A stretch of DNA of 17,384 nucleotides, taken from positions 1-17,384 of IMG/VR virus record IMGVR_UViG_2778261639_000015. One strand, 5' to 3'. This document shows, piece by piece, positions 1-17,384 of this stretch. A program made the translations under genes and the position numbers. Under the pieces are notes generated by a model. It searched no databases and was not told where the DNA came from. It saw only the letters and a program-made list of their open reading frames with translations. This DNA comes from a virus (taxonomy: Duplodnaviria; Heunggongvirae; Uroviricota; Caudoviricetes). Within the stretch, counting starts at the first letter, position 1, and each line of letters opens with the position of its first letter.

Positions 1-77
1 AGGCGCTCGCACTAATGACGCCCGTGGAATATATTTTAAAAGAGAATAAAAATTGCAATATGTGGTGGACCCATACA
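1..77. repeat. Left copy of a perfect 77-bp terminal inverted repeat (reverse complement of 17308-17384)
   Basis: Bases 1-77 are the exact reverse complement of 17308-17384; identity breaks at position 78 (g here vs a in the partner). Compared by eye. Confidence 0.9.
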
Positions 78-156
78 GCTCATTGTTTTTTAACCTCAAC
101 TCAGATTAAAATTCGTTTTGTTCAGTGAATGATCTTGCCGGATACACACTGTTCAT

Positions 157-177
157 AGCCTGCGCCATACGCAGGCT
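157..177. terminator. Hairpin (8-bp stem AGCCTGCG / CGCAGGCT, 5-nt loop) next to the racC 3' end; possible terminator
   Basis: Perfect inverted repeat 157-164 / 170-177. A T-rich run (atttcttt) follows on the + strand only; on the - strand, downstream of racC, no U-tract follows. Confidence 0.3.
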
Positions 178-184
178 ATTTCTT

Positions 185-460
185 TCAGATTTCACCTTTT
201 AATTTCATTGCAATTAGAGTTGCCAGAAATTCGGCTTTTTTTTCTGCGGGCAGATTCTTTCCGGTATGCACCAGGCACATTTTTTTGACACCTTCGTGAA
301 GTGTTTTAACGTTGCCTGATGGACCGTCGATATCAACCACAGTGAATGGGGTTTCTTTATTTTCTGTTTTAATCACGTAGCCAATACGCTTTCCTTCCAG
401 ATTAACTTCGTGAACAATGTCATCAGTAGTTACAACAGTGGCTTCATAACTGGTAATCAT
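185..460 (-). CDS. racC: RacC (91 aa), Rac prophage early-left protein of unknown function
   Basis: ORF 185..508 trimmed to the ATG at 460 (MITSYEATVV...), preceded by AAGGAG. Length and sequence match my memory of K-12 RacC. Confidence 0.85.
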   Translation of the reverse strand: MITSYEATVVTTDDIVHEVNLEGKRIGYVIKTENKETPFTVVDIDGPSGNVKTLHEGVKKMCLVHTGKNLPAEKKAEFLATLIAMKLKGEI

Positions 461-534
461 GTTTTTCTCCTTAATTAAGGTTGAGCGAATCCCTGCCATT
501 GCTGGCATAAATTCAGTTTCGCATAGTCAGTTAA

Positions 535-705
535 TTAAAGTTCGTGTGCCATCTGGTCTTTTTCGGCACATATTTCACTACAATATTTTTTCATTTCCGT
601 CGTTGGGATAACTCCACGCATGAAATGAAGTGGTCTTTTAATGCTTTTGCTTTCTTTAACTTCTTTATCGCAAAGGTGGTAAGCACATTTTATTTTCTTA
701 GTCAT
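535..705 (-). CDS. ydaE: YdaE (56 aa), small Cys-rich (CxxC...CxxxC) zinc-ribbon-like protein
   Basis: Hand-translated minus-strand [59 protein letters not shown]; below the ORF-track size cutoff. Its start ATG shares one base with the kilR stop (TGATGA). Confidence 0.8.
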   Translation of the reverse strand: MTKKIKCAYHLCDKEVKESKSIKRPLHFMRGVIPTTEMKKYCSEICAEKDQMAHEL

Positions 706-926
706 CACCATGACTCCGCCTTTACAGGTAAACCATCACGACCGAGGAAGACTTTAATCATGCAGTCAGTAATGCATGTTTTTGTGGTCAGGTTTCGAAT
801 ATAAAGTTTTCGCTTTTTAATATTGTTTGCCGAGGCAATATATGTCCGGCCGTTATGAAGAACATAATCACCAGGAGTCACACACTGACGAGGTATTTCA
901 TCAGTTCCGAAGTGATGAGCAATCAT
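705..926 (-). CDS. kilR: KilR (73 aa), Rac prophage cell-division inhibitor (FtsZ antagonist)
   Basis: ORF 705..944 trimmed to the ATG at 926 ([14 protein letters not shown]...), with GGAG 6 nt upstream. 73 aa as in K-12 KilR. Confidence 0.85.
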
Positions 927-1356
927 AATTATCTCCATTTTCACAAATGAACCTTGTTGATGCGGTGCCTGGTGCCTCCAGGTGACGTTAACCAGTTAAC
1001 AATTAACGCCGGATAATCCCCCCATAACACTGATGCTTTTAACTGTTCCGCGTGCGCTTAGCCGCATTCACCGCATCACAAAATTCACTTTAAAAAGGGC
1101 GGACATCAGCCGAACTTCAAGAAAAAACTGATGCCGCCAAGACTACACACAGCAATGTCGTTATTTACAACCGGAGGCGCACTCCCACCATTTAAATTTA
1201 ACAGACAAGACCGACTCTTTATGGATATCGGAAATGCGCCTTCGTGTTGCGCCCAGTTTTATTTCACCACCTCCGGGCTTCGGTGGTCTCGGCTATACCC
1301 CTACAGCGAAAGCTTGTGTTAACATTTCAATACCCTTACAGTTGAGAGTTATTGAT

Positions 1357-1845
1357 ATGTTGGATGTATTTACTCCATTGTTGAAACTTTTTGCTAACGA
1401 GCCACTCGAAAGACTTATGTATACGATTATCATTTTTGGTCTCACTCTCTGGCTGATACCGAAAGAGTTTACTGTCGCATTCAATGCTTATACTGAAATA
1501 CCTTGGCTCTTTCAGATTATCGTTTTTGCCTTTTCTTTCGTGGTCGCCATTTCCTTCTCAAGATTGCGAGCACATATTCAAAAGCATTATTCATTACTAC
1601 CAGAGCAACGAGTATTGCTTCGTTTATCTGAGAAAGAAATAGCTGTATTTAAAGATTTCCTTAAAACAGGAAATCTTATTATCACTTCTCCTTGCCGTAA
1701 CCCGGTTATGAAAAAATTAGAACGGAAGGGCATCATTCAACATCAGAGTGATAGCGCAAACTGTTCTTATTATCTCGTCACCGAAAAATACTCCCATTTT
1801 ATGAAGTTATTCTGGAACAGCAGGAGTAGACGTTTTAATCGTTAG
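1357..1845 (+). CDS. sieB: SieB-like superinfection exclusion protein (162 aa, two hydrophobic helices)
   Basis: ORF 1234..1845 trimmed to the ATG at 1357 (MLDVFTPLLKLF...). Membrane-protein profile; same position and orientation as sieB in Rac and lambda, transcribed opposite to the early-left genes. Confidence 0.8.
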   Translation: MLDVFTPLLKLFANEPLERLMYTIIIFGLTLWLIPKEFTVAFNAYTEIPWLFQIIVFAFSFVVAISFSRLRAHIQKHYSLLPEQRVLLRLSEKEIAVFKDFLKTGNLIITSPCRNPVMKKLERKGIIQHQSDSANCSYYLVTEKYSHFMKLFWNSRSRRFNR

Positions 1846-1997
1846 TTTACTGTGTGCTTCTCCAACCATCGGCGCGCACCAGTTTCGGTTTTAAATGTTT
1901 TGCTTTTGGTATACGTCATAGCAGTGAACGTTCCATCTTGGTTGGGGAACACGCCGCACACCATGGATTCGTTATTGCCGAGGTCGATTTTTTGCAT
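1842..1997 (-). CDS. ydaF: YdaF (51 aa) small early-left protein
   Basis: Hand-translated MQKIDLGNNESMVCGVFPNQDGTFTAMTYTKSKTFKTETGARRWLEKHTVN; GAGGTG upstream. Its 3' end overlaps the convergent sieB stop by 4 nt. Confidence 0.75.
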   Translation of the reverse strand: MQKIDLGNNESMVCGVFPNQDGTFTAMTYTKSKTFKTETGARRWLEKHTVN

Positions 1998-2007
1998 TTT
2001 TCGCACC

Positions 2008-2142
2008 TCACATCTTGTTGTTGCGGATAGAGGCTTCTGCCTGCCAGAGATCCCAGTCGTTGCTGCGTAAAGCCTGCACAGCCTGGTTGTAAGTGATGCC
2101 GCAACAATCCATCAAATACTGAACTACTTCGTAATGCACCAT
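2008..2142 (-). CDS. ydaG: YdaG (44 aa) small early-left protein
   Basis: Hand-translated MVHYEVVQYLMDCCGITYNQAVQALRSNDWDLWQAEASIRNNKM; RBS AAGGGGAGAG upstream. First gene of the leftward operon. Confidence 0.75.
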   Translation of the reverse strand: MVHYEVVQYLMDCCGITYNQAVQALRSNDWDLWQAEASIRNNKM

Positions 2143-2311
2143 CTTATCTCTCCCCTTAACGCCGGGTGGCGGAACTAACTGCTGCACTGCAAAATTTGAA
2201 TCCCGCCGTCATGTTCATACGCCTCGGGCTGGCTACTTAACCCCTTACCACGGCCTGGTAACTCGAAGTATTGCCCGGCGTTCTGTGGGGCGGGGTGGGT
2301 GGTATGCTGGA

Positions 2312-2340
2312 ACTATAGGTAATGCCTAATTGATTGTCAA
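2312..2340 (-). promoter_or_regulatory. PL-like leftward sigma70 promoter (-35 TTGACA, 17-bp spacer, -10 TATAGT)
   Basis: Minus strand reads TTGACA (2340-2335), 17 nt, TATAGT (2317-2312). A GCCTAAT operator half-site lies in the spacer. It points toward ydaG. Confidence 0.5.
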
Positions 2341-2377
2341 TAGGCTGTGCCTAATGTTTTGAGCGTAACCTAATAGG
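2321..2377. promoter_or_regulatory. OL-like operator cluster: repeated ATTAGGC/GCCTAAT half-sites and one TAGGC-N3-GCCTA palindrome
   Basis: GCCTAAT at 2324-2330 and 2349-2355; palindrome TAGGCtgtGCCTA at 2341-2353; CCTAATAGG at 2369-2377. The same motif family occurs on the other side of racR. Confidence 0.5.
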
Positions 2378-2449
2378 TGATGACGACAGGAGAAAGTGAT
2401 GGGGGGTTAAATAACGGAATCCAGGAGTTTTCCGTCAGACCATATAAGT

Positions 2450-2926
2450 TTAAGTTCCAGTTTTTGTGATGTTCTGGCTTTTTCGTTCAGATTCTAGAGC
2501 TTTCAGATACTTACCCACTTTCATTTCCATCGCTGCTATGTAGGCGCGAACATCGTGGTCAACCCAATCTGGTTCTGTAGCATTTCCAGATAACAGGAAA
2601 GCTACAATCGCTCTTATTTCATCAGAGGCTGCTTGATAAAGGTTGTTTATATCTAAAAGTTCACTTTTTGTATCTGAATTGGTGGGGGTTGGTATGGGGT
2701 ATTCGTTAAGCCCCCAATGCTCTGGACCAACAACATCAGAAAAGAAACGCCATAATTCTGGAAGTTTATCTTTACTTATGGAGCCTTTCTTAATCCAGTC
2801 ATAAATTGATGGTGGTTGGACTTTGAAGTGGCGTGCGACCTCCGCCTTTGATTTGACGGATCCCGATGCGATTTTTTTGTTAATGGCCTGCTCTATCGCT
2901 CGGCCTAAGTCTTTACCACTAAGCAT
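2450..2926 (-). CDS. racR: RacR prophage repressor (158 aa)
   Basis: ORF 2450..2926 (MLSGKDLGRAIEQAINKK...). Divergent from ydaS with an operator-rich intergenic region; AGGAG RBS upstream of the start on the minus strand. Confidence 0.9.
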   Translation of the reverse strand: MLSGKDLGRAIEQAINKKIASGSVKSKAEVARHFKVQPPSIYDWIKKGSISKDKLPELWRFFSDVVGPEHWGLNEYPIPTPTNSDTKSELLDINNLYQAASDEIRAIVAFLLSGNATEPDWVDHDVRAYIAAMEMKVGKYLKALESERKSQNITKTGT

Positions 2927-2945
2927 TGCTTAATATTCTCCTATG

Positions 2946-3019
2946 CTCATTGCATTAGGCAATCCCTACCCTCATTGCATTAGGCATAGCCTATTGACAT
3001 TTATGTTAGGCGTCGCCTA
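2946..3019. promoter_or_regulatory. OR-like operator cluster: 16-bp direct repeat x2 plus two TAGGC-N3-GCCTA palindromes
   Basis: CTCATTGCATTAGGCA at 2946-2961 and 2971-2986 (25-bp period). Palindromes TAGGCataGCCTA at 2981-2993 and TAGGCgtcGCCTA at 3007-3019. Confidence 0.55.
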
Positions 3020-3023
3020 ATAT
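2994..3023 (+). promoter_or_regulatory. PR-like rightward sigma70 promoter for ydaS (-35 TTGACA, 18-bp spacer, -10 TAATAT)
   Basis: TTGACA at 2994-2999 and TAATAT at 3018-3023. The operator palindrome 3007-3019 overlaps the spacer and -10; the ydaS ATG at 3050 follows a GGAG. Confidence 0.5.
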
Positions 3024-3049
3024 TTCTGTGTGTTTTTGGAGTTCATTCG

Positions 3050-3346
3050 ATGAAAAAAGAGAACTATTCATTCAAGCAAGCTTGTGCTGTTGTCGGTGGG
3101 CAATCAGCAATGGCTAGGCTTTTAGGTGTATCACCTCCAAGCGTAAATCAATGGATCAAAGGGGTACGTCAATTGCCTGCCGAGAGATGTCCAGCAATTG
3201 AACGTGCAACAAGAGGTGAGGTTCTGTGCGAAGAACTTCGTCCTGATATTGACTGGTCATATTTACGACGTTCGGCATGTTGTTCGCAGAATATGTCAGT
3301 GAAGCAACTAAATGACAGTAACAAATCCTCATTTGATCATACCTGA
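3050..3346 (+). CDS. ydaS: YdaS (98 aa), Cro-like HTH protein; toxic when derepressed in K-12
   Basis: ORF 3050..3346 (MKKENYSFKQACAVVGGQSAMARLLGVSPPSVNQWIKG...), an HTH-like segment. First rightward gene after the OR region. Confidence 0.85.
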   Translation: MKKENYSFKQACAVVGGQSAMARLLGVSPPSVNQWIKGVRQLPAERCPAIERATRGEVLCEELRPDIDWSYLRRSACCSQNMSVKQLNDSNKSSFDHT

Positions 3347-3368
3347 AACATCAAGAGGCAAATGATTC

Positions 3369-3791
3369 ATGAAAATCAAGCATGAGCACATCGAATCAGT
3401 GTTGTTTGCCCTAGCAGCCGAAAAAGGGCAGGCATGGGTAGCCAATGCCATTACTGAAGAATATCTGCGCCAGGGGGGCGGCGAATTGCCCCTGGTTCCA
3501 GGCAAGGACTGGAACAATCAGCAGAATATCTATCACCGTTGGTTGAAAGGTGAAACGAATGCGCAAAGGGAAAAAATTCAGAAATTGATCCCTGCGGTTC
3601 TGGCAATTCTTCCTCGCGAGCTGCGTCACCGACTCTGCATCTTCGATACCCTGGAACGCCGTGCATTACTGGCGGCGCAGGAAGCGTTAAGTACGGCAAT
3701 TGATGCGCATGATGATGCAGTCCAGGCCGTTTACCGGAAAGCGCATTTCAGCGGCGGCGGGTCTTCCGACGATTCTGTCATTGTTCATTAA
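3369..3791 (+). CDS. ydaT: YdaT (140 aa) early protein
   Basis: ORF 3369..3791 (MKIKHEHIESVLFALAAEKGQAWV...), 140 aa as in K-12 YdaT; immediately downstream of ydaS. Confidence 0.85.
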   Translation: MKIKHEHIESVLFALAAEKGQAWVANAITEEYLRQGGGELPLVPGKDWNNQQNIYHRWLKGETNAQREKIQKLIPAVLAILPRELRHRLCIFDTLERRALLAAQEALSTAIDAHDDAVQAVYRKAHFSGGGSSDDSVIVH

Positions 3792-3803
3792 GCAAAAGTT
3801 TCC

Positions 3804-4661
3804 ATGCTGTTTGTGCTTATTCTAAGCAATCGGGCAGCATCATACGGGGCAATTATGGCCGCATTACCATACATGCAACTGTACATAGCTGATTACCTGG
3901 CTGACACCATGCATTTGTCAGCAGAGGAGCATGGTGCGTATTTGTTGCTGATGTTCAATTACTGGCAAACAGGAAAGCCAATACCTAAAAACAGGCTGGC
4001 AAAAATTGCCCGTCTGACTAACGAGCGATGGGCTGATGTTGAACCGTCCTTGCGGGAGTTTTTTTGCGATAACGGCGAGGAATGGGTGCATCTTCGGATT
4101 GAGGAAGATCTGGCATCAGTCAGGGAAAAATTAACCAAAAAATCAGCCGCAGGAAAAGCATCGGTTCAGGCCAGAAGAAGCAGAAAGGAAGCAGATGTTC
4201 AAACAAAACAAGAGAGAAATTTAACAGGTGTTCAAACAGATGTTGAAGTGGTGTTTGAACATGATGTCAACACAAAGGCAACTAATAAAGATACAGATAA
4301 AGATCTAAAAACAGATCCCCCCCTAAATCCCCCCCGGGGGAATCGAGGTGTCAAAAAGTTTGACCCTCTGGATATTGCTTTGCCGAACTGGATTTCTGTC
4401 TCGCTCTGGCGTGAGTGGGTTGAATTTCGCCAGGCATTGCGTAAACCGATTCGAACGGAGCAGGGCGCTAACGGGGCGATACGGGAGCTGGAAAAATTCC
4501 GCCAGCAGGGTTTTTCACCTGAGCAGGTGATTCGACACAGCATCGCCAATGAATACCAGGGCTTGTTCGCGCCAAAAGGTGTTCGACCTGAGACGTTACT
4601 CCGACAGGTTAACACCGTCTCGTTACCGGATAGTGCGATCCCGCCAGGCTTCAGGGGGTAA
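3804..4661 (+). CDS. ydaU: YdaU (285 aa), probable replication-initiation (O-like) protein
   Basis: ORF 3804..4661. No clear RBS at 3804; an alternative in-frame ATG at 3855 (MAALPYMQLY...) has a better GGGG-type RBS. Sits directly upstream of the DnaC-like loader. Confidence 0.75.
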   Translation: MLFVLILSNRAASYGAIMAALPYMQLYIADYLADTMHLSAEEHGAYLLLMFNYWQTGKPIPKNRLAKIARLTNERWADVEPSLREFFCDNGEEWVHLRIEEDLASVREKLTKKSAAGKASVQARRSRKEADVQTKQERNLTGVQTDVEVVFEHDVNTKATNKDTDKDLKTDPPLNPPRGNRGVKKFDPLDIALPNWISVSLWREWVEFRQALRKPIRTEQGANGAIRELEKFRQQGFSPEQVIRHSIANEYQGLFAPKGVRPETLLRQVNTVSLPDSAIPPGFRG

Positions 4662-4667
4662 CTGACC

Positions 4668-5414
4668 ATGAAAAATATTGCGGCAGGAGGCATTCTTGAA
4701 CGTATCCGCAGACTGGCCCCGCCACATGTAACCGCCCCATTCAAAACGGTAGCGGAGTGGCGCGAGTGGCAACTTTCCGAAGGCCAGAAACGTTGTGAGG
4801 AGATCAACCGTCAGAATCGTCAGTTGCGGGTGGAAAAAATTCTGAATCGCTCTGGCATCCAGCCATTGCACCGCAAATGCTCGTTTGCGAATTACCAGGT
4901 GCAGAACGACGGTCAGCGATACGCGTTGAACCAGGCGAAATCTATCGCTGATGAACTGATGACCGGGTGTACAAATTTTGCGTTCAGCGGAAAACCTGGT
5001 ACCGGAAAAAACCATCTGGCGGCGGCTATCGGGAATCGCCTGCTGAAAGATGGCCAGACAGTGATTGTGGTTACCGTGGCTGATGTCATGAGTGCTCTAC
5101 ACGCCAGCTATGACGACGGGCAATCAGGCGAAAAATTTTTGCGGGAACTGTGCCAAGTGGATCTGCTGGTTCTTGATGAAATTGGCATTCAGCGCGAGAC
5201 AAAAAACGAGCAGGTGGTGCTGCACCAGATTGTTGATCGCCGGACAGCGTCGATGCGCAGCGTGGGGATGCTGACAAACCTGAACTATGAGGCCATGAAA
5301 ACATTGCTCGGCGAGCGGATTATGGATCGCATGACCATGAACGGCGGGCGATGGGTGAATTTTAACTGGGAGAGCTGGCGTCCGAATGTCGTCCAGCCAG
5401 GAATTGCGAAGTGA
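4668..5414 (+). CDS. ydaV: YdaV (248 aa), DnaC-like replicative helicase loader
   Basis: ORF 4668..5414 with Walker [18 protein letters not shown] and Walker B LLVLDEIG; RBS AGGGGG upstream. Confidence 0.9.
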
Positions 5415-5436
5415 TTTTTACCGGGAGGAAATTTTA

Positions 5437-6198
5437 ATGGAAACCGTTTTTGATGCACTGAAAGCAATGGGAAAAGCCACGTCGGTAGAACTGGCTGCGC
5501 GACTTGATATCAGTCGTGAAGAAGTGCTGAACGAGCTGTGGGAACTTAAAAAGGCTGGCTTCGTTGATAAAAGCGTATACACCTGGCGTGTGGCTGATAA
5601 CAACGTTCAGCAGGAACAGCCAGAGCAGGCAGAACTGCCGGAAGAAACCACCACGGCAACAGTAGCGAAAATCTCAGAGTGCGATTTAACCGCGACGATT
5701 GAACAACGTGGCCCACAAACGGCGGATGAACTGGCTACGTTTTTCGGCACCACATCACGCAAAGTGGCTTCAACGCTGGCAATGGCAATCAGCAAAGGCC
5801 GTCTGATTCGCGTTAATCAGAACGGTAAATTTCGTTACTGCATGCCGGGCGATGATTTACCAGCAGAGCCGAAAGCTGCATCGGTAACGGAAACTGATGG
5901 TAAAACCTTTCCTCAGCCAGCCGGTGTTGCGTTACCAGTACAGGAAGCGGCAACACAGGAAGATATTAAAACAGAAACTGTGGCGGACATTGTGCAGTCG
6001 CTGCCATCGTTTACTGAAACGCGAGCTGATGACCTGATTTTGCCATCGCTGCATATGGCAAACCGCGAACTGCGTCGGGCGAAAAATCATGTCCAGAAGT
6101 GGGAGCGAGTCTGCGCCGCGCTGCGGGAGCTGAACAAGCACCGGGATATTGTTCGACAGATTGCTGATTCTTCCCGCCGTGTTGTATCGGAAAAGTGA
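5437..6198 (+). CDS. YdaW-like hypothetical protein (253 aa); probably the intact version of the gene that is a remnant in K-12
   Basis: ORF 5386..6198 trimmed to the ATG at 5437 ([13 protein letters not shown]...), with GGGAGG 7 nt upstream. Acidic, low-complexity middle region. Confidence 0.6.
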
Positions 6199-6213
6199 TT
6201 GCCGGAGGCGCTT

Positions 6214-6645
6214 ATGGCAAAAGTATTTACACAAGAAGAGCGGGAAAAAATTAAAGGGCAGGTTGTTGAGCTAGTACGCCGGAGTGGACGCGAGACGTTA
6301 CGACAACTGGAGGCCAAGACAGGTGCGACAAGATATCTGATGAGCGTTCTCGCCAGAGAGCTGGTTGCCAGTGGCGATGTATACAACTCTGGTTACGGGT
6401 TATTCCCGTCTGAACAGGCTCGTAAGGACTGGCAAAATGCCCGCAAAAAACTATCCAGGGCAAAGGTGAAGAAACCATCTGTGGTTGATCCGGACCTTAT
6501 CTGGTCATTACCAGACGGAGAAATACGCCGCTACGACAGGCGTCTGAACATAATCTGTCGCGAGTGCCGGAAGAGTGAAGTTATGCAGCGTGTGCTGGCG
6601 TTTTATCAGAATGGTTTTCGAGAGAGGCTTGGAGATCAGGGATGA
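6214..6645 (+). CDS. Hypothetical protein (143 aa), basic; function unknown
   Basis: ORF 6199..6645 trimmed to the ATG at 6214 (MAKVFTQEEREK...), with GGAGG upstream. Last gene before the AT-rich insertion. Confidence 0.5.
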   Translation: MAKVFTQEEREKIKGQVVELVRRSGRETLRQLEAKTGATRYLMSVLARELVASGDVYNSGYGLFPSEQARKDWQNARKKLSRAKVKKPSVVDPDLIWSLPDGEIRRYDRRLNIICRECRKSEVMQRVLAFYQNGFRERLGDQG

Positions 6646-6838
6646 ATAGAACGATGAAGGATGGAAGCTACATATTCTCGGTACTAAGATTTATTTTTCT
6701 GACACAAAATGACCATTTGGCGTTACATAATCCCAAAAAAACGTATCAAAAATCTCAAAATGCGTTACGATTAGAGAGTATTTTGATTCTGCGTGCTCAT
6801 TTTTTGATTGCTGTGGCTTTTTGTTGTGGGAGTGTTGA

Positions 6839-10232: not shown

Positions 10233-10245
10233 CAACTATATAAAT

Positions 10246-10275
10246 CAAACCCGCTGTAGCGGGTTTGATTTATTT
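10246..10275 (+). terminator. Rho-independent terminator after the protease gene
   Basis: Stem AAACCCGC (10247-10254), loop TGTA, stem GCGGGTTT (10259-10266), followed by a T-rich tail (gatttatttgtg). Confidence 0.6.
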
Positions 10276-10648
10276 GTGGGTGTGTTTTATAAAAATACCG
10301 CCCATACACAACAAAATACAAAAAGTATTACAGATAAAAAAGGAGCGTAATGTGCAGATTTGTTGTTTTCCATATTTACTCACCTTAATATGATTAATCC
10401 TGGTAAGATTGTTATTTCAGCGGTTTTCAAATGAGATATTATGCTAATCTGGCAGATTTGCATAACATTAAAATTTAATTTGTCTAACCGCTTTTAATAA
10501 TAAGCGTTGTATTTTTATCCCAGCAATCTATTGTTTGATTTTTATTCCATCAATGTGGGGGCTTTACACTGGAACCAGTTTATTTATACTTTATACGTCA
10601 GCCTGAACAACTGGCATCTGCTGCACTGCGCCATCGAGAGATTGAGAA

Positions 10649-11248
10649 ATGGCGCATATACAACTGGTCAAACAAACTTCTTCTGGTTTACTTCTCCCGG
10701 CGACGCCGGAGAGTTGCGATTTTCTGCATCAAATCAAAATAGGTGAGTGGATACACGCAGACTTTAAGCGTGTGCGTAACTACGCATTCCACAAGCGTTT
10801 TTTCAAACTCCTGCAACTGGGATTCGATTACTGGACTCCGGTCGGTGGGGCGATCACGCCTCGCGAACGAAAACTGGTGTCCGGTTTCGTTGATTATCTG
10901 TGTGAATCAGTAGGCCGGGAACATACGCCAGCTCTGAGCGAAGCCGCAGATCAATATCTGAATACAGTTGCGACACGCAGAACCCGGGATACGGCATTGC
11001 TAAAGTCGTTTGAGGCTTTCCGCGAGTGGGTAACCATTCAGGCCGGATTTTACACCGAGCATCTTTATCCTGATGGTAGTCGTGGGCGTCGGGCGAAATC
11101 TATCGCGTTTGCGAATATGGAGGAAACCGAGTTTCAGCAGGTTTATAAATCTGTACTGAATGTGCTGTGGAACTGGATCCTGTACCGAAAATTTTCCTCT
11201 CCGGAACAGGTCGAAAATGTGGCCGCGCAGCTACTGGAGTTTGCGTAA
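10649..11248 (+). CDS. DUF1367-like nin-region protein (199 aa)
   Basis: ORF 10649..11248 (MAHIQLVKQTSSG...). Size and position (upstream of a YbcO-like gene and a Q-like gene) match DUF1367 proteins of lambdoid prophages; family assignment is from memory. Confidence 0.5.
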   Translation: MAHIQLVKQTSSGLLLPATPESCDFLHQIKIGEWIHADFKRVRNYAFHKRFFKLLQLGFDYWTPVGGAITPRERKLVSGFVDYLCESVGREHTPALSEAADQYLNTVATRRTRDTALLKSFEAFREWVTIQAGFYTEHLYPDGSRGRRAKSIAFANMEETEFQQVYKSVLNVLWNWILYRKFSSPEQVENVAAQLLEFA

Positions 11249-11538
11249 TGGTGGATTTACGTAAAGCGGCGCGGGGGCAGATGTGCACCGTCAGAATTCC
11301 TGGCTACTGCAATCACGATCCGGAAACGTCTGTGCTGGCGCATTACCGACTGGCGGGAACGTGCGGAACAGCGACAAAACCACACGATATGCAGGCGGCG
11401 ATTGCCTGTAGCTCATGCCACGATCTAATCGACGGGCGGGTAAAAACCAGCGATTACACCAAAGAAGAATTACGCCTGATGCATGCAGAAGGTGTTTTTC
11501 GCACACAAGAAATCTGGAGAAAGGAGGGATATTTGTGA
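11248..11538 (+). CDS. YbcO-like putative zinc-binding nuclease (DUF1364-type, 96 aa)
   Basis: ORF 11167..11538 trimmed to the ATG at 11248 (MVDLRKAARGQMCTVRIPGYCNHD...CSSCHDLIDG...). The start overlaps the upstream stop (TAATG). Cys/His motifs; 96 aa as in DLP12 YbcO. Confidence 0.6.
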   Translation: MVDLRKAARGQMCTVRIPGYCNHDPETSVLAHYRLAGTCGTATKPHDMQAAIACSSCHDLIDGRVKTSDYTKEELRLMHAEGVFRTQEIWRKEGYL

Positions 11539-12077
11539 TTTACCCAACGAATACAGGAAAAAGCGGAGAACACCTTCGTCTCGCCACGCTGGAAAGTGTC
11601 TGGATTCAGGGCAAACTGCGTATGTGGGGGCGCTGGTCGTATATTGGCGGTGGCAGGTCAGGGAATATGTTCAATCAGTTGTTGGCATCCAAAAAACTGA
11701 CGAAAACAGCCATTAATGAAGCCCTGCGCAGAATGAAAAAAGCGGGAATAGAGAAAGCTGAGCTGGAAGCGTTTTTGCGAGAGATGATCAACGGCAAGCA
11801 AAAGAGCTGGCTGGCGCATTGTACTGATGCAGAGGCGTTATGTATTGATCGAGTCATAAGTGAGGTGCTGGCAGAGCATCCAGGATTGATTTGCATTCTC
11901 CGGCAACGCTATGAAGGGCGGGGGATGACTAAGCGCAAAATGGCTGAATTGCTAAATGATGCACACCCAGAGTGGTGTTTTAGCACATGCGAAAAACGGA
12001 TTGCTAATTGGTTAGCTGTTGCTGAGTATGCCCTATATATTCCCATGCGTGAATCATTTGCTGAGAAAATGGCTTGA
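11535..12077 (+). CDS. Putative late-gene antiterminator (Q-like), ~180 aa
   Basis: ORF 11415..12077 trimmed to the GTG at 11535, with AAGGAGGG 6 nt upstream; overlaps the YbcO-like stop (GTGA). Last gene before a terminator and the lysis cassette. Assignment is positional plus weak motif memory; start is uncertain (alternative ATG at 11622). Confidence 0.45.
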   Translation: MIYPTNTGKSGEHLRLATLESVWIQGKLRMWGRWSYIGGGRSGNMFNQLLASKKLTKTAINEALRRMKKAGIEKAELEAFLREMINGKQKSWLAHCTDAEALCIDRVISEVLAEHPGLICILRQRYEGRGMTKRKMAELLNDAHPEWCFSTCEKRIANWLAVAEYALYIPMRESFAEKMA

Positions 12078-12157
12078 TTTCTTACGTATAAACTGCTTCA
12101 ATTTTGCTATGCTTCGCAAAGCTGTATCGCGAGGCGGATTGCAGACATGGACATCGT

Positions 12158-12186
12158 AAAAAAACCGCTTAATGCGGTTTTTTTAC
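12158..12186 (+). terminator. Rho-independent terminator ~90 nt downstream of the Q-like gene (tR'-like)
   Basis: A-run, stem AACCGC (12163-12168), loop TTAAT, stem GCGGTT (12174-12179), then T-run; near-symmetric, so possibly bidirectional. Confidence 0.6.
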
Positions 12187-12504
12187 GTCAGGAAAGCAGG
12201 GGAGAATGCTGCTAGTTGGGCAACTGGTCTTTCTGCTCCAAATTATAACAGAGACCAGTTATAGTTTCGGTGCTGTGTTTTTTTTACAATATTGTGATAA
12301 CACATTGCTGGCGGGAGTTTTGATATTTCTTGGCAGGGGCTGATGATGCGTTATCCTGATGTCGTCAACTCATATAAAATGAGATGAGAGATCATTGCAG
12401 GGTGGTTTGTAATTCGCTGTTTAGCGGGACAATATGTTGTCTGATACAAGACACCCGACGCCTCAGATTACTATAATAAAGACGAAGCATCCTTTGTATT
12501 GACC

Positions 12505-12531
12505 AACCGCCTGTTTAGGCGGTTCTTTTTG
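12505..12531 (+). terminator. Second rho-independent terminator in the Q-to-lysis spacer
   Basis: Stem AACCGCCT (12505-12512), loop GTTT, stem AGGCGGTT (12517-12524), then CTTTTT. Confidence 0.5.
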
Positions 12532-13121
12532 GGCTGGTTTATTGTATGCCAAATGATTATTAAAAAGGTTGTGTTAATAACAAAATCCGAAATAATATGC
12601 CTGCATATTTTTATCTTGCTTATATTCTGCATATTGTGCATAGCAGGCTCATCCCTGCAATCAAAACTGTATGATGAGTATTTTTTGTTTTCCTTTTTTC
12701 CAGTCATCTGATGATGACCTGCTTCTTTTTAATCCGGATCGACATCAGTTTTTTAAGATAATTCCTGCGAGTTATATGCATAAATGCCACAAACTCCGCA
12801 TTTTATGTGGTTGGGAGTTGCCGGGCGCGCAGTGAGTTTGCTAAGAAAACTCCTGCATGGTGAATCCCCCTGTGCGGTGGGGTGATACCATTAACCTTTT
12901 CTGTCGCCGACAGGTATCACGAACATTTTGTTCACCGGGAGGCACCCGGCACCATGCACTTCAATAGATTCTCTCCACATTATGGATATTCTTTCAGAAT
13001 ATCCCACGCAGACTTTGTGTAAATGTTAACAAATGTGCGTTTTATTTGATCTGATTCGCTGTTTGAGCGTCCAAAACAACGGTATATATAATCCTTTACT
13101 ATATGACATATGTGAGGAAAA

Positions 13122-13550
13122 ATGGGTTTTCGTAGCGCATCAATTCTTACGTTGATTATTAGTGGGATTATTATCGGGTGCACTGATGCTGTATCGACAA
13201 ATTATCATGACCGTACATCATATTACTCCGATAAAGCAATAGAGACACAGTATGTGAGTTCATCTGAACGTACTTCTGATGTTAGTGAGGATATCCGTCT
13301 GTATGCCCATCAAATCAAGAGCGCCATCGAAAAACAGTTCGGGGATGCGAGTAAGTATTCAGGAAAAGAGTGTACACTGAGAATGCATATGGCCCCGAAT
13401 GGCCTTCTACTGGAGGTTAAAAGAGAAAGTGGAGACCTCGATTTATGTCGTGAAGCGATGAATGCGATAAAGAATGCTGATATACCTGCCCCCCCTTCGC
13501 CGGAAGTATATAAAGTATTTCAAAATGGGGTGCTGGATTTTAAACCCTGA
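13122..13550 (+). CDS. Lipoprotein with TolA C-terminal domain III-like domain (142 aa)
   Basis: Signal peptide with lipobox IIGC. C-terminus (YAHQIKSAIEKQFGDASKYSGKECTLRMHMAPNGLLLEVKRESGDLDLCREAMNAIKNADIPAPPSPEVYKVFQNGVLDFKP) closely resembles E. coli TolA domain III as I recall it (...YAGQIKSAIESKFYDASSYAGKTCTLRIKLAPDGMLLDIKPEGGDPALCQAALAAAKLAKIPKPPSQAVYEVFKNAPLDFKP). Own promoter-like elements: TTGAGC 13063-13068, TATAAT 13087-13092; RBS GAGG. Confidence 0.8.
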   Translation: MGFRSASILTLIISGIIIGCTDAVSTNYHDRTSYYSDKAIETQYVSSSERTSDVSEDIRLYAHQIKSAIEKQFGDASKYSGKECTLRMHMAPNGLLLEVKRESGDLDLCREAMNAIKNADIPAPPSPEVYKVFQNGVLDFKP

Positions 13551-13700
13551 TATTTATTGTTTTGTAATAAACGGTTTCGGCTTAGGTTTGTTCTGACACA
13601 GCTACGGCACTGAGCTAAATTTAGCGGATAGTCAGCTCTGAGCCAGTGGCGGACGTAACAACTACTATTGCTGAGATTTTAATGGATTGAGGAGCAAGAA

Positions 13701-14096
13701 GTGGGATTAAAGAAAATCGTTATGTTGACTTTTTGGGTCGGTTTTGTTGCGGGATGCACACCTTTACACCCTTCAGATTGCCACAAAACTACTGCTACAG
13801 GTAGTTGCAGTTCAGGACGCTGGGATGATCAGGATGAATGGGGGGCGCAAGCGCGGGGAATCAGAGCTGCAATTAATGCCAAACTTGATGAGCCGCATAA
13901 CTGGAAAGGGAAAAAATGCAGGTTGCATATGGAATTCTCTCAGGATGGCACGGCGTTAAAAATATCTACCAGTAACGGTGATAAAGCCTATTGCGAAGCG
14001 ATAAAGTCCGCAGCTCATAAAGCCAAATTTCCGGCCTTCAACAATCCGGAAGTCTACAGAGATTTTCAGAAATCTGGCTTTGACATGCGAGGTTAG
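13701..14096 (+). CDS. Second, divergent TolA-III-like lipoprotein (131 aa), GTG start
   Basis: GTG at 13701 with TGAGGAG 6 nt upstream; signal peptide with lipobox VAGC. Its C-terminal half keeps the same spacing of conserved residues as the upstream paralog (I..AI...GK.C.L......G......GD..C.A...A.K....P.......VY..F). Confidence 0.65.
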   Translation: MGLKKIVMLTFWVGFVAGCTPLHPSDCHKTTATGSCSSGRWDDQDEWGAQARGIRAAINAKLDEPHNWKGKKCRLHMEFSQDGTALKISTSNGDKAYCEAIKSAAHKAKFPAFNNPEVYRDFQKSGFDMRG

Positions 14097-14221
14097 CTCT
14101 TCAATTACTATATCTCATTCATAGCAAACTGACAGATTTGATGATGTTCTATATACGAAACCTGTGATGTCAAGTCTGAGCTAATACAAATAAACATAAT
14201 ATCAGAGAAATACATTTTATT

Positions 14222-14245
14222 AGCTCGCTACGGCGAGCTTTTTAT
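14222..14245 (+). terminator. Rho-independent terminator between the lipoprotein genes and the holin
   Basis: Stem AGCTCGC (14222-14228), loop TACG, stem GCGAGCT (14233-14239), then TTTTT. Confidence 0.55.
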
Positions 14246-14347
14246 ATTGCATCGTCTCCAGCATATATATCAATTAAGGCTCTGATTGATGTGTCTGAAA
14301 GCCTACACATAATAACTATGCCATCCGTTCCGTGCGGAGGTGAGGCT

Positions 14348-14563
14348 ATGAAATCCATGGACAAAATTTCAACAGGCATTGCCTACGGCACCTCCGCAGG
14401 CAGTGCTGGCTACTGGTTTTTACAGTTGCTCGATAGAGTAACTCCGTCACAGTGGGCTGCAATCGGTGTGCTGGGTAGTCTGGTATTTGGCCTGCTGACG
14501 TACCTGACAAACCTTTATTTCAAGATTAAAGAAGATAAGCGCAAGGCTGCGAGAGGTGAATAA
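14348..14563 (+). CDS. Phage-21-type pinholin (S21-like, 71 aa) with dual-start motif MKSM
   Basis: ORF 14291..14563 trimmed to the ATG at 14348 ([28 protein letters not shown]...), with GGAGGTGAGG upstream. Second in-frame ATG at 14357 gives the holin/antiholin pair. Confidence 0.85.
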
Positions 14564-15060
14564 TGCCTCCATCATTACGAAAAGCCGTTGCTGCTGCTAT
14601 TGGTGGCGGAGCAATTGCTATAGCATCAGTGTTAATCACTGGCTCAAGTGGTAACGATGGTCTGGAGGGTGTCAGCTACATACCATACAAAGATATTGTT
14701 GGTGTATGGACTGTATGTCACGGGCATACAGGAAAAGACATCATGCTCGGTAAAACGTATACCAAAGCAGAATGCAAAACACTCTTGAATAAAGACCTTG
14801 CCACTGTCGCCAGACAAATTAACCCGTACATCAAAGTCGATATACCGGAAACAACGCGCGGCGCTCTTTACTCATTCGTTTACAACGTGGGTGCTGGCAA
14901 TTTCAGAACATCGACGCTTCTTCGCAAAATAAACCAGGGCGATATCAAAGGCGCATGTGATCAGCTACGTCGCTGGACATATGCTGGCGGTAAGCAATGG
15001 AAAGGTCTCATGACTCGTCGTGAGATTGAGCGTGAAATCTGTTTGTGGGGTCAGCAATGA
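14563..15060 (+). CDS. SAR endolysin (R21-like lysozyme, 165 aa)
   Basis: N-terminal signal-anchor-release segment [20 protein letters not shown] followed by a T4-lysozyme-type catalytic region ([24 protein letters not shown]). The ATG overlaps the holin stop (TAATG). Confidence 0.9.
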
Positions 15061-15521
15061 ACAGAGTAACCGCGATTATCTCCGCTCTGGTTATCTGCAT
15101 CATCGTCTACCTGTCATGGGCTGTTAATCATTACCGTGATAACGCCATTACCTACAAAGCCCAGCGCGACAAAAATGCCAGAGAACTGAAGCTGGCGAAC
15201 GCGGCAATTACTGACATGCAGATGCGTCAGCGTGATGTTGCTGCGCTCGATGCAAAATACACGAAGGAGTTAGCTGATGCGAAAGCTGAAAATGATGCTC
15301 TGCGTGATGATGTTGCCGCTGGTCGTCGTCGGTTGCACATCAAAGCAGTCTGTCAGTCAGTGCGTGAAGCCACCACCGCCTCCGGCGTGGATAATGCAGC
15401 CTCCCCCCGACTGGCAGACACCGCTGAACGGGATTATTTCACCCTCCGGGAACGACTGGTAATGATGCAGGCCCAACTTGAAGGTGCTCAGCAATACATA
15501 ACCGAGCAGTGTTTAAAGTAA
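15057..15521 (+). CDS. rzpR: Rz i-spanin (154 aa), lambda-Rz-like
   Basis: ORF 15045..15521 trimmed to the ATG at 15057 ([38 protein letters not shown]...), near-identical to lambda Rz as I recall it. The start overlaps the endolysin stop (ATGA). Confidence 0.85.
15277..15462 (+). CDS. rzoR: Rz1 o-spanin lipoprotein (61 aa) embedded in the +1 frame of Rz
   Basis: [24 protein letters not shown]...[15 protein letters not shown]: lipobox VVGC and a proline-rich mature region, entirely inside the Rz gene. Confidence 0.85.
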
Positions 15522-15658
15522 AATCTTAACTACAATATGATTCATTTTGATGATTGTTTCATAAGGAACAGTGAAGTAAGATCTAAGAGGAGTTAAATTT
15601 TATACAGTATAATCATAATATTGCAGCAAGGTGGTTATAATTGAAAGAATATTTAGAT

Positions 15659-17116
15659 ATGAATACATCTCATGTAAGAGTTGTTACTCATATGTGTGGG
15701 TTCCTGGTTTGGCTCTATAGTCTTTCAATGTTGCCACCAATGGTTGTAGCATTGTTTTATAAAGAAAAAAGCCTGTTCGTTTTCTTTATAACTTTCGTTA
15801 TATTTTTTTGCATTGGTGGCGGAGCGTGGTATACAACTAAGAAATCTGGCATTCAATTACGTACCCGTGATGGGTTTATTATAATTGTAATGTTTTGGAT
15901 TTTGTTTTCTGTTATTAGTGCATTCCCTTTATGGATTGACTCAGAACTTAATTTAACGTTCATTGATGCTCTGTTTGAAGGGGTTTCTGGAATAACAACA
16001 ACAGGAGCAACTGTAATTGATGATGTTAGTTCATTACCTCGGGCATATTTGTACTATCGGTCACAGTTAAATTTTATAGGTGGTTTAGGAGTTATTGTTC
16101 TGGCGGTTGCAGTATTGCCATTATTGGGTATTGGTGGTGCAAAGCTTTATCAGTCAGAAATGCCGGGGCCATTTAAGGATGACAAACTCACTCCCCGCCT
16201 GGCCGATACGTCACGGACACTGTGGATAACTTATTCTTTATTAGGTATTGCTTGTATTGTCTGTTATAGACTTGCAGGAATGCCTTTGTTTGATGCTATT
16301 TGTCACGGGATTTCCACAGTTTCGCTTGGTGGTTTCTCAACTCATAGCGAGAGTATCGGATATTTTAATAACTATTTGGTTGAGCTGGTGGCTGGTTCTT
16401 TTTCCCTGCTATCGGCTTTCAACTTCACTCTTTGGTATATTGTTATTAGCAGAAAAACGATAAAACCTTTAATCAGAGATATTGAACTTCGTTTCTTTCT
16501 GTTAATAGCCTTAGGGGTGATCATTGTTACCTCTTTCCAGGTCTGGCATATAGGTATGTATGACTTGCATGGAAGTTTTATTCATTCGTTTTTTCTTGCC
16601 AGCTCCATGCTCACTGATAATGGTTTAGCTACGCAGGATTATGCAAACTGGCCCACGCACACGATAGTGTTTTTGCTGTTGTCAAGTTTCTTTGGGGGAT
16701 GTATCGGTTCAACCTGTGGTGGAATTAAGTCACTTCGATTTCTTATACTTTTCAAACAAAGCAAACACGAGATAAATCAACTTTCTCATCCCAGAGCGTT
16801 GTTAAGTGTAAATGTAGGAGGGAAGATAGTTACAGATCGTGTAATGAGGTCTGTATGGAGTTTCTTTTTTCTTTATACTCTCTTCACGGTGTTTTTTATA
16901 CTGGTGTTAAATGGTATGGGATATGATTTTCTTACATCATTTGCAACAGTGGCTGCATGTATTAATAATATGGGATTAGGTTTTGGGGCTACTGCATCGT
17001 CATTCGGAGTGCTTAATGACATTGCAAAATATTTAATGTGCATAGCTATGATTCTTGGTCGCCTTGAAATTTATCCTGTTATTATATTGTTTTCAGGTTT
17101 TTTTTGGCGCTCCTAA
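15659..17116 (+). CDS. trkG: TrkG K+ uptake protein (485 aa), prophage-borne paralog of TrkH
   Basis: ORF 15641..17116 trimmed to the ATG at 15659 (MNTSHVRVVTHMCGFLVWLYSL...). Multi-pass membrane protein with repeated glycine-containing selectivity-filter-like motifs; AT-rich. Matches K-12 TrkG length and sequence from memory. Confidence 0.95.
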   Translation: MNTSHVRVVTHMCGFLVWLYSLSMLPPMVVALFYKEKSLFVFFITFVIFFCIGGGAWYTTKKSGIQLRTRDGFIIIVMFWILFSVISAFPLWIDSELNLTFIDALFEGVSGITTTGATVIDDVSSLPRAYLYYRSQLNFIGGLGVIVLAVAVLPLLGIGGAKLYQSEMPGPFKDDKLTPRLADTSRTLWITYSLLGIACIVCYRLAGMPLFDAICHGISTVSLGGFSTHSESIGYFNNYLVELVAGSFSLLSAFNFTLWYIVISRKTIKPLIRDIELRFFLLIALGVIIVTSFQVWHIGMYDLHGSFIHSFFLASSMLTDNGLATQDYANWPTHTIVFLLLSSFFGGCIGSTCGGIKSLRFLILFKQSKHEINQLSHPRALLSVNVGGKIVTDRVMRSVWSFFFLYTLFTVFFILVLNGMGYDFLTSFATVAACINNMGLGFGATASSFGVLNDIAKYLMCIAMILGRLEIYPVIILFSGFFWRS

Positions 17117-17307
17117 TATATGGCTGATTTATAATTGTGAGTTTAATATTATGTTGACTCACTCATTGATCCAATACCTAACTTTACCAGCAACACCTCC
17201 GCCCCCAGTAGCACTGGCTGCTGGGGTGCGTTTTATTCATAAAGCAAGGCTGTATGAGCGAGAAATTAAAGATAGTCTATCGCCCATTACAAGAATTGTC
17301 ACCGTAT

Positions 17308-17384
17308 TGTATGGGTCCACCACATATTGCAATTTTTATTCTCTTTTAAAATATATTCCACGGGCGTCATTAGTGCGAGCGCCT
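17308..17384. repeat. Right copy of the perfect 77-bp terminal inverted repeat (reverse complement of 1-77)
   Basis: Exact reverse-complement identity to 1-77; identity ends at 17307. Confidence 0.9.

Follow-up and report, generated by a model that had tools for sequence, protein, structure and literature searches.

A perfect 77-bp terminal inverted repeat on a Rac-type prophage contig is very probably an assembly overlap with two inverted copies of an IS481-family element

The window, which is the entire stretch of 17,384 nucleotides that we analyzed, begins and ends with the two arms of a perfect 77-bp inverted repeat. We are highly confident that this repeat is the k-mer overlap left at each end of a whole contig where it meets two inverted copies of an insertion sequence (IS) in a Rac-type prophage. 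This explanation is ordinary and of an already known kind. The source strain would carry two 1,096-bp copies of an IS481-family element, one at codon 2 of recE and the other at codon 18 of ynaK. The copies would be opposite in orientation, each with its right end (the 3' end of the transposase gene) toward the 17.2-kb segment that they enclose. In a de Bruijn assembly of short reads, all of the copies in the genome would have been merged into a single node, and the unique segment would then have been emitted as one contig that keeps a k-length overlap with the IS node at each end. Because both ends would join the same side of that node, the overlaps are exact reverse complements.

Results

The repeat is the right end of an IS

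The arms of the repeat (1-77 and 17308-17384) are 77 nt long, are 100% complementary, and lie 17,230 nt apart, as found both by reading the two ends and by a repeat search of the window. A sequence-only reading of the window had described the arms as perfect reverse complements whose identity ends at 78 and 17307, which is correct. The bases just inside the arms are wholly unlike (in the orientation of the IS, the flanks are GCTCA... vs. ATACG...). The probability of a perfect 77-nt match by chance is about 4^-77, or 4e-47, and after this pair, the best inverted repeat that the window contains is 33 nt long (85%).

The 77-mer is the terminal part of an IS and does not have the status of a separate repeat. 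Among the 5,426 complete E. coli genomes, 1,069 contain it, at a total of 1,403 places and with a maximum of 38 per genome, and these copies sit at the 3' end of coding sequences that RefSeq annotates as "IS481 family transposase." We set the ends of the IS from 7 copies with 5-bp target-site duplications (TSDs), which gives a length of 1,096 bp. The 77-mer corresponds to nt 1020-1096 and covers the 3' end of the transposase gene (the C-terminal 25 codons) and the right terminus. When the full IS was compared to the window with blastn, only these 77 nt matched, once per end and in opposite orientations, and there was no significant match in the interior. Given blastn, the position of the 77-mer within annotated transposases, and the ends of the 7 copies, positions 1-77 (+ strand) are the last codons of the transposase and the right terminus (...CCCATACA), with the body of the IS to the left of the contig. 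Positions 17308-17384 (- strand) are the same last 77 nt, according to the repeat search and blastn, with the body to the right of the contig. Since the bodies lie outside the window and no more than 77 nt of either copy can be seen, we can only infer that both copies are full-length.

In complete E. coli genomes, the IS is almost always full length, and complete genomes contain roughly 1,900 copies in total. The full-length IS was found in 1,147 records and the complete 77-mer in 1,138, which shows that the 77-mer does not exist as a fragment on its own. Comparison of the two termini of the IS over 77 positions gives just 21 matches. Both ends of the contig must therefore be right ends, and the two copies are necessarily inverted. 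Copies in direct repeat, with termini that are identical over 77 nt, are ruled out by the same comparison. The sequence-only reading had set IS elements aside, in part for want of a transposase inside the window. There is indeed none, because the bodies of the IS are outside the contig, but the repeat does belong to an IS.

Family membership was assessed from the transposase. Its match to the NCBIfam model for IS481 (NF033577) covers nearly the full model and scores 221.6 bits, just below the cut-off of 224 bits (E = 1.5e-65). IS481 is by far the best family, as the next best, IS3, scores 98 bits. The Pfam domains HTH_28, rve, rve_3, and rve_2 are above their cut-offs, and a match to HTH_32 is marginal. 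As in the family of IS481 (the type element, from Bordetella pertussis), the element is about 1.1 kb, has a single transposase ORF with an N-terminal helix-turn-helix and an rve/DDE integrase core, has imperfect terminal inverted repeats that start with TGT...ACA, and makes a short TSD. The termini (TGTGTAAG... and ...CCCATACA) agree in register at 12 of 27 positions and have the box ATATTGCAAT in common. The TSD is 5 bp wherever both sides of the insertion could be checked, except for a rearranged flank in L044 and a 1-nt difference in L028. IS481 itself, unlike this element, makes a 6-bp duplication at NCTAGN. The transposase ORF also differs from those of the family in that the element contains no stop codon for it, and the apparent target is the -35 hexamer of a sigma-70 promoter instead of a short palindrome. 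We found no name for the 1,096-bp IS in the literature outside of ISfinder.

The window is a complete contig

Byte for byte, the window matches the tail of NLVG01000079.1 (from assembly GCA_002510355.1), a contig of exactly 17,384 bp that was traced through a lysozyme variant specific to the strain. As the window is the complete contig, its ends were set by the assembly. (Another record, L071, is identical to positions 4563-17384 of the window.) The inner edge of the 77-mer is the true tip of the IS and the outer edge is the end of the contig, as expected of a de Bruijn k-mer overlap.

Many draft contigs end inside this element. Among 39 IMG/VR contigs that contain the IS tip, 22 end within the IS, at 53-140 nt. 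The break offsets in other contigs look like values of k (53-58, 89-103, and 126-127 nt). Three contig ends in one genome are at 56, 56, and 58 nt into the IS, and both ends of one 19.8-kb contig are capped in the same inverted manner. In SPAdes, adjacent edges of the graph overlap by k, and the default values of k go up to 77 when reads are about 150 nt long. The k for this assembly was probably 77; a literature search turned up neither a paper nor metadata describing the assembly. Separately, a related record holds a perfect 77-bp tandem duplication.

The window resembles other contig breaks that repeats induce in de Bruijn assemblers such as SPAdes: an entire contig terminates in a multicopy repeat that has been collapsed, the repeated sequence has the same fixed length at both ends, and its inner boundary is the true end of the repeat. 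Unlike the usual break, the two ends attach to one side of the repeat node, so the terminal repeat is inverted instead of direct. (A direct terminal repeat would point to a circular contig.) The sequence-only reading had proposed that a whole contig enters one longer repeat, in opposite orientations, at its two ends, and that the length of 77 reflects an assembler k-mer. The match to NLVG01000079.1, the identification of the 77-mer as the end of a multicopy 1,096-bp element with its tip at the inner edge, and the other draft contigs that end inside the element all support this.

The IS junctions of the Rac-type prophage lie at recE and ynaK

The unique segment between the arms (78-17307; 17,230 bp) is, to judge from its gene content and the alignments of its relatives, part of a Rac-type lambdoid prophage. 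Using the annotation of SCU-104, the genes are racC, ydaE, kilR, sieB, ydaF, racR, ydaS/T/U/V, DUF1627, and DUF977; then the defence genes iteA and iteS, DUF1367, YbcO, DUF1133, and two TolA-like genes; and finally a holin, a lysozyme, an Rz-like lysis gene, and trkG. Across the whole block, SCU-104 is 98.2% identical and is collinear from racC to trkG, between recE and ynaK. L009 and L017 are both 99.94% identical and L070 is 99.945% identical, and positions 78-260 are 100% identical to K-12. In 58 complete genomes, at least 80% of the segment is covered, and all of these alignments run exactly from 78 to 17307. The relatives continue past the breakpoints into recE and the ParB-like ynaK. The sequence-only reading had stated that the true neighbors could not be inferred, and for the ancestral neighbors, comparison to relatives recovers them (codon 2 of recE and codon 18 of ynaK). 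The statement stands for the source strain, whose present orientation and connectivity cannot be told.

On the left, positions 78-83 are codons 1-2 of recE on the minus strand (ATG AGC), so the break is at codon 2. In another genome (L018), the full 1,096-bp IS occupies exactly this site; GCTCA flanks it on each side, and the remainder of recE lies beyond. In a relative without the IS (L002), the site reads ...GGTTTTGT GCTCA TTGTTT.... This comparison identifies GCTCA (78-82) as the 5-bp TSD of the left copy, and the left insertion is a simple transposition. In the source strain, the left partner would be the remainder of recE (...GGAAGAGTGGTTTTGTGCTCA) followed by the left-end 77-mer of the IS (TGTGTAAGTTCACAGAG...).

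On the right, comparison to L002 shows that positions 17254-17307 (+ strand) are the first 18 codons of ynaK, which is ParB/Srx-like and is cut by the right IS. The coding sequence in L002 is at 23189-23980, and the match to the window stops at 23242. The start of ynaK translates to MSEKLKIVYRPLQELSPY and is followed by residues derived from the IS. Given the element's invariant 5-bp TSD, CGTAT at 17303-17307 (ATACG in the orientation of the IS) is the predicted TSD of the right copy, and its second copy would be outside the contig. The far side of the right insertion, on the + strand of the window, is expected to read ...CTCTGTGAACTTACACA and then CGTATGCGCACAACGCCAGG (the remainder of ynaK).

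Neither junction between the IS and its flank had a match covering the junction in the 5,426 complete E. coli genomes. An exact 38-mer across the right junction was absent from the GTDB species representatives and the JGI metagenome contigs, and the left junction was absent from the JGI metagenomes. An exact-protein look-up of the junction peptides (a 31-aa fusion of YnaK and the IS, and a 41-aa transposase tail) found none on record.

Alternative explanations

Inverted IS copies around a cargo are the classical architecture of a composite transposon, so the two copies and the 17.2-kb segment might move as a unit, as in Tn10 (with IS10) or Tn5 (with IS50), where inverted copies of one IS also bracket a multi-gene segment. 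The cargo would be the Rac immunity and replication genes, the iteA/iteS anti-phage genes, the lysis cassette, and trkG. A second contig elsewhere is capped likewise at both ends, which is a point in favor. Nevertheless, we consider a functional composite transposon to be very unlikely. Unlike Tn10 and Tn5, there is no sign of joint movement: the segment still lies where it belongs in the prophage, running straight into recE and ynaK at the breakpoints in at least 58 genomes, and the left IS is found alone, as a simple insertion that made a separate TSD. This implies two independent insertions instead of arrival as a unit. Also, neither junction was found at any other location or replicon in the genomes, GTDB representatives, and JGI metagenomes that we searched, and the outer ends of the composite would both be left ends, so that transposition would use two identical ends. 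The lone left insertion in L018 does imply that states with a single insertion exist in nature, and this might favor a mixed culture, or a single mobile copy, in which the IS is at recE in some cells and at ynaK in others and never in both. This seems highly improbable, as uninterrupted paths from recE to racC or from trkG to ynaK, if present at appreciable depth, would normally extend the contig, and instead its ends stop cleanly in the IS.

Terminal repeats look like perfect inverted repeats, and no more than 77 nt can be seen at either end of the window, so the arms could conceivably be a genuine short repeat, either solo remnants of IS ends or the terminal repeats of a mobile element or a linear replicon. 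We give this almost no credence. The 77-mer is nearly always within the full IS, and it is not credible that two independent cuts each left exactly 77 nt and each coincided with an end of a database contig. What lies between the arms is an incomplete part of a prophage in the chromosome, and it is neither a replicon nor an element that encodes its own transposase. Judged by its genes and its native setting, the block is not a linear replicon or a transposon whose ends would be terminal inverted repeats.

A possible preference for promoters

We think it possible, if somewhat short of probable, that the positions and inverted orientation of the two copies are not accidental, because this IS seems to seek out sigma-70 promoters. 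The 5-bp duplication appears to be placed directly upstream of the -35 hexamer, with the transposase always reading in the direction of the promoter. Both junctions of the window fit this rule, with promoter-like sequences that converge. On the left (83-112, + strand), TTGTTT at 83-88 and TAAAAT at 107-112 are separated by an 18-nt spacer; on the right (17274-17302, - strand), GTGACA at 17302-17297 and TAGACT at 17279-17274 are separated by a 17-nt spacer. Both point into the block, and convergent targets would force the inverted arrangement of the IS, with IRR inward. The right site was flagged independently by a promoter scan, with 9/12 matches. The left site was not called by a stricter promoter scan because its -35 hexamer has only 3/6 matches; a terminator-like hairpin lies downstream of it, at 155-179.

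More broadly, the favored natural targets appear to be the strong promoters of antitoxin small RNAs in type I toxin loci. These targets include sok of hokA, hokB, hokD, and other hok genes, as well as agrB of dinQ. At these loci, insertion appears to separate the toxin gene from its leader and to spare the antitoxin. In the searchable literature outside of ISfinder, we found no description of a bacterial IS that chooses its targets by promoter.

Discussion

For curators, the ends of this contig are IS junctions, and recE and ynaK are probably disrupted by insertions in the source strain. Also, the orientation of the 17.2-kb prophage segment, with its anti-phage system, is beyond the reach of short reads and should not be trusted. 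As in known cases of invertible segments bounded by IS elements, identical 1.1-kb inverted repeats that are 17.2 kb apart would be a substrate for RecA-dependent inversion, so homologous recombination between the copies could invert the segment. Inversion between inverted copies of IS481 has been reported in B. pertussis. Unlike those cases, no inversion was observed here, and the window would read alike in either orientation.

The window is also a worked example of how to interpret a perfect terminal inverted repeat of length k on a draft contig: both ends have entered a collapsed repeat from the same side, and no biological terminal repeat is implied. The finding itself matters little, and the promoter-targeting lead would matter more if confirmed. 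If the lead is true, then this IS chooses its targets from the architecture of promoters and would parallel, in bacteria, the Pol III-directed integration of Ty elements in yeast, and it could explain why chromosomal hok-type toxin loci so often adjoin IS elements.

The terminal repeats are one end of an IS481-family element

Positions 1-77 and 17308-17384 of the window are perfectly reverse-complementary, with 17,230 nt between them. Both a direct reading of the ends and a repeat finder run on the whole window bore out the sequence-only reading, which had described a perfect 77-bp inverted repeat that ends abruptly: identity is lost immediately at 78/17307, where the flanks, in the common orientation, are GCTCATTG... 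and ATACGGTG... The chance of a perfect 77-nt match is about 4 · 10−47, and the second-best inverted repeat within the window is 33 nt long, with 85% identity. (This second repeat, at 2335-2367 and 2967-2999, flanks racR (2450-2926, minus strand), and the racR-ydaS intergenic region has 25-nt units in a tandem pair at 2940-2989. These repeats are probably repressor operators.)

A search of 5,426 complete E. coli genomes located the 77-mer at 1,403 places, spread over 1,069 genomes and both chromosomes and plasmids; a single genome has as many as 38 copies. All of these matches lie under coding sequences annotated as "IS481 family transposase" or "integrase core domain", and in E2348/69 and six other records, the 77-mer lies at the 3' end of the transposase gene. 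By comparing copies, we found that the insertion sequence (IS) is 1,096 bp long, has the termini TGTGTAAG... and ...CCCATACA, and is accompanied by a 5-bp target-site duplication at each insertion; the 77-mer is nucleotides 1020-1096. The transposase has HTH_28/HTH_32 and rve/rve_3 domains. Its best NCBIfam match is by far IS481 (221.6 bits, against a cut-off of 224), followed by IS3 (98 bits).

When the whole IS was compared to the window with blastn, nucleotides 1020-1096 alone matched, once at each end and in opposite orientations. Because the two IS termini are identical at just 21 of 77 positions, both contig ends correspond to the right end of the IS (the 3' end of the transposase), and the flanking copies are inverted relative to each other. 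The 77-mer does not exist as a solo fragment: 1,138 records contain it in full, and 1,147 contain the near-full-length IS.

The transposase reading frame runs to the end of the IS without a stop codon: the final 3 nt of the element are the frame's last codon, ACA (in comparison loci L001, L003-L008, and L022-L027 and in the window). The length of the annotated coding sequence therefore depends on the flank and ranges from 1047 to 1107 nt. At TTGA targets, the frame meets an in-frame TGA at once. In the window, the tail of the frame at the left end (3-128) reads through 16 codons to a TGA at 126-128, and at the right end (17299-17382, minus strand) it reads through 2 codons.

The window is a whole contig, probably bounded by a collapsed repeat

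Using a window-specific variant of the lysozyme, we reached contig NLVG01000079.1 (GCA_002510355.1), which is also 17,384 bp; the part that we fetched is identical to 4563-17384 of the window. The window is this whole contig, so each 77-mer stops on its outer side where the assembly ends, and on its inner side at the biological tip of the IS. A de Bruijn contig that abuts a collapsed repeat has this signature. (For reads of about 150 nt, the top default k in SPAdes is 77, and SPAdes edges overlap by k.) The proposal that a whole contig enters one repeat, in opposite orientations, at both ends thus held up: the assembly breaks off in two copies, inverted relative to each other, of a common IS.

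Other IMG/VR contigs that end inside the IS give independent support for this explanation. Among 39 contigs with the IS tip, 22 end within the element, mostly 53-58, 89-103, or 126-140 nt from the tip; one genome contributes three such ends, at 56, 56, and 58 nt. Another contig, IMGVR_UViG_2724679236_000005 (loci L045 and L065; 19,843 bp), has inverted IS tails of 56 and 58 nt at its two ends, with the right ends inward, as in the window, and TTG-type targets (TTGATA and TTGCAA). A contig boundary capped by an IS is ordinary and already understood in kind.

The tip of the Escherichia IS also appears beside a hokA/sok-like flank in a 566-bp contig (NZ_BAAAHF010000206.1) from the assembly of Streptomyces malaysiensis JCM 10672. 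This is almost certainly enterobacterial contamination.

Two IS junctions in a Rac-type prophage

When the whole window was compared to complete E. coli genomes, 58 genomes covered at least 80% of it, and each top alignment spans exactly 78 to 17307. In strain SCU-104, this block forms the middle of a Rac-type prophage and contains racC, ydaE, kilR, sieB, ydaF, racR, ydaS/T/U/V, DUF1627, DUF977, iteA, iteS, DUF1367, DUF1364, DUF1133, two TolA-like genes, a holin, a lysozyme, a lysis gene, and trkG. Base 78 lies 6 nt into recE (bases 78-83, read on the minus strand, give its codons ATG AGC), whereas base 17307 lies 54 nt into the ParB/Srx-like ynaK. Closer relatives from draft and metagenome assemblies (99.94-99.945% identity) likewise stop at 78/17307, without the IS. 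Neither IS/flank junction was found among the 5,426 complete E. coli genomes, and the right junction was found in neither the GTDB species representatives nor the JGI metagenomes.

The anti-phage pair iteA (AAA ATPase, 384 amino acids) and iteS (S8 peptidase, 754 amino acids), within 6839-10232 on the plus strand, lies between DUF977 and DUF1367 and is preceded by a small 73-amino-acid reading frame (6642-6863). The pair is missing from the Rac prophage of K-12 and is part of the reason that the block reaches about 17 kb. Also, an Rfam match to the STnc100 sRNA family (12825-13011, plus strand; 86.6 bits, where the gathering score is 47) lies in the prophage late region, upstream of two adjacent genes with TolA C-terminal domains (13122-13550 and 13701-14096).

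The left junction is assembled in L018, a 5.46-Mb contig (GCA_027278605.1) that we reached by an exact-protein look-up of IteS. It contains a full-length IS at the exact site and orientation of the left junction, with 0 mismatches to the E2348/69 copy, with GCTCA on either side and the rest of recE beyond. Its transposase has 362 amino acids, which matches the 16-codon read-through predicted from the window. As ynaK is intact in L018, the left insertion exists alone. L018 is 99.88% identical to the window and, by SNPs, other relatives are closer; because the IS is highly site-specific, a common site need not mean shared descent. In L018, a stretch of exactly 77 bp is also perfectly duplicated in tandem (17195-17348, corresponding to 15162-15238 of the window). 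The duplication disrupts an Rz-like lysis gene and is absent from the window and the other relatives; it resembles a k=77 overlap that was not trimmed when contigs were joined.

In the source strain, then, two junctions between the right end of the IS and Rac DNA, at codon 2 of recE and codon 18 of ynaK, face each other across 17,230 bp. Behind each would be a full-length IS copy. If so, recE would have lost its start codon and promoter, ynaK would be cut down to 18 codons, and the inverted 1.1-kb copies could be a substrate for RecA-dependent inversion. Because the contig would be the same after an inversion, short reads cannot show which way the segment lies. Two copies flanking a segment could structurally be a functional composite transposon, but this is unsupported: the block lies in its ancestral setting, the left IS has the properties of a simple insertion, and the IS-segment-IS unit is seen nowhere else.

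The element appears to target promoters

We assembled 15 sequence-unrelated target sites from complete genomes, IMG/VR contigs, and the two ends of the window. At 11 of the 15 sites, TTG directly follows the 5-bp duplication on the right-end side, versus a background of 1.8% (P ~ 7 · 10−17). Twelve sites have nTG, and at 11 of these a −10-like hexamer (A at position 2 and T at position 6) follows after a spacer of 16-18 nt, versus 15% of background TTGs (P ~ 9 · 10−9). The three remaining sites are one rearranged flank and two divergent relatives of the IS without left ends. Examples of targets are TTGAAT-17-TATAAT, TTGATC-17-TAAAAT, TTGCCA-17-GATAAT, and TTGACA-17-GAGTAT.

Many of the targets are promoters of antitoxin sRNAs at type I toxin loci, namely agrB of dinQ and the sok promoters of several hok genes. 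At dinQ, the Rfam AgrB antitoxin sRNA starts 7-8 nt past the predicted −10, which makes this target a genuine promoter. At four hok loci (hokA, hokB, hokD, and one more), about 13 nt separate the IS from the hok start codon, and the region matched by Rfam sok starts at the right end of the IS. We infer that insertion there parts the toxin gene from its leader and leaves the antisense promoter intact.

Both sites in the window (78-112 and 17274-17307) agree with this pattern: the left target is TTGTTT-18-TAAAAT (83-112, plus strand), and the right target is GTGACA-17-TAGACT (17302-17274, minus strand), which a promoter scan also flagged. The transposase always reads in the direction of the promoter, so two convergent targets explain why the copies are inverted with their right ends inward. 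The left promoter-like element points toward a terminator-like hairpin (155-179, plus strand), which is followed by a T-rich tail. The predicted transcript, of about 70 nt (from 83-190, plus strand), would be antisense to the racC/recE junction and is predicted to fold well (minimum free energy −24.7 kcal/mol, z = −3.56). This region is 100% identical in K-12, and the transcript matches no Rfam family.

No description of promoter-directed targeting by such an IS turned up in the literature that we searched, and its novelty is unproven. While the boundary itself is of low interest, the element's apparent choice of targets by promoter is the one result here that merits follow-up.
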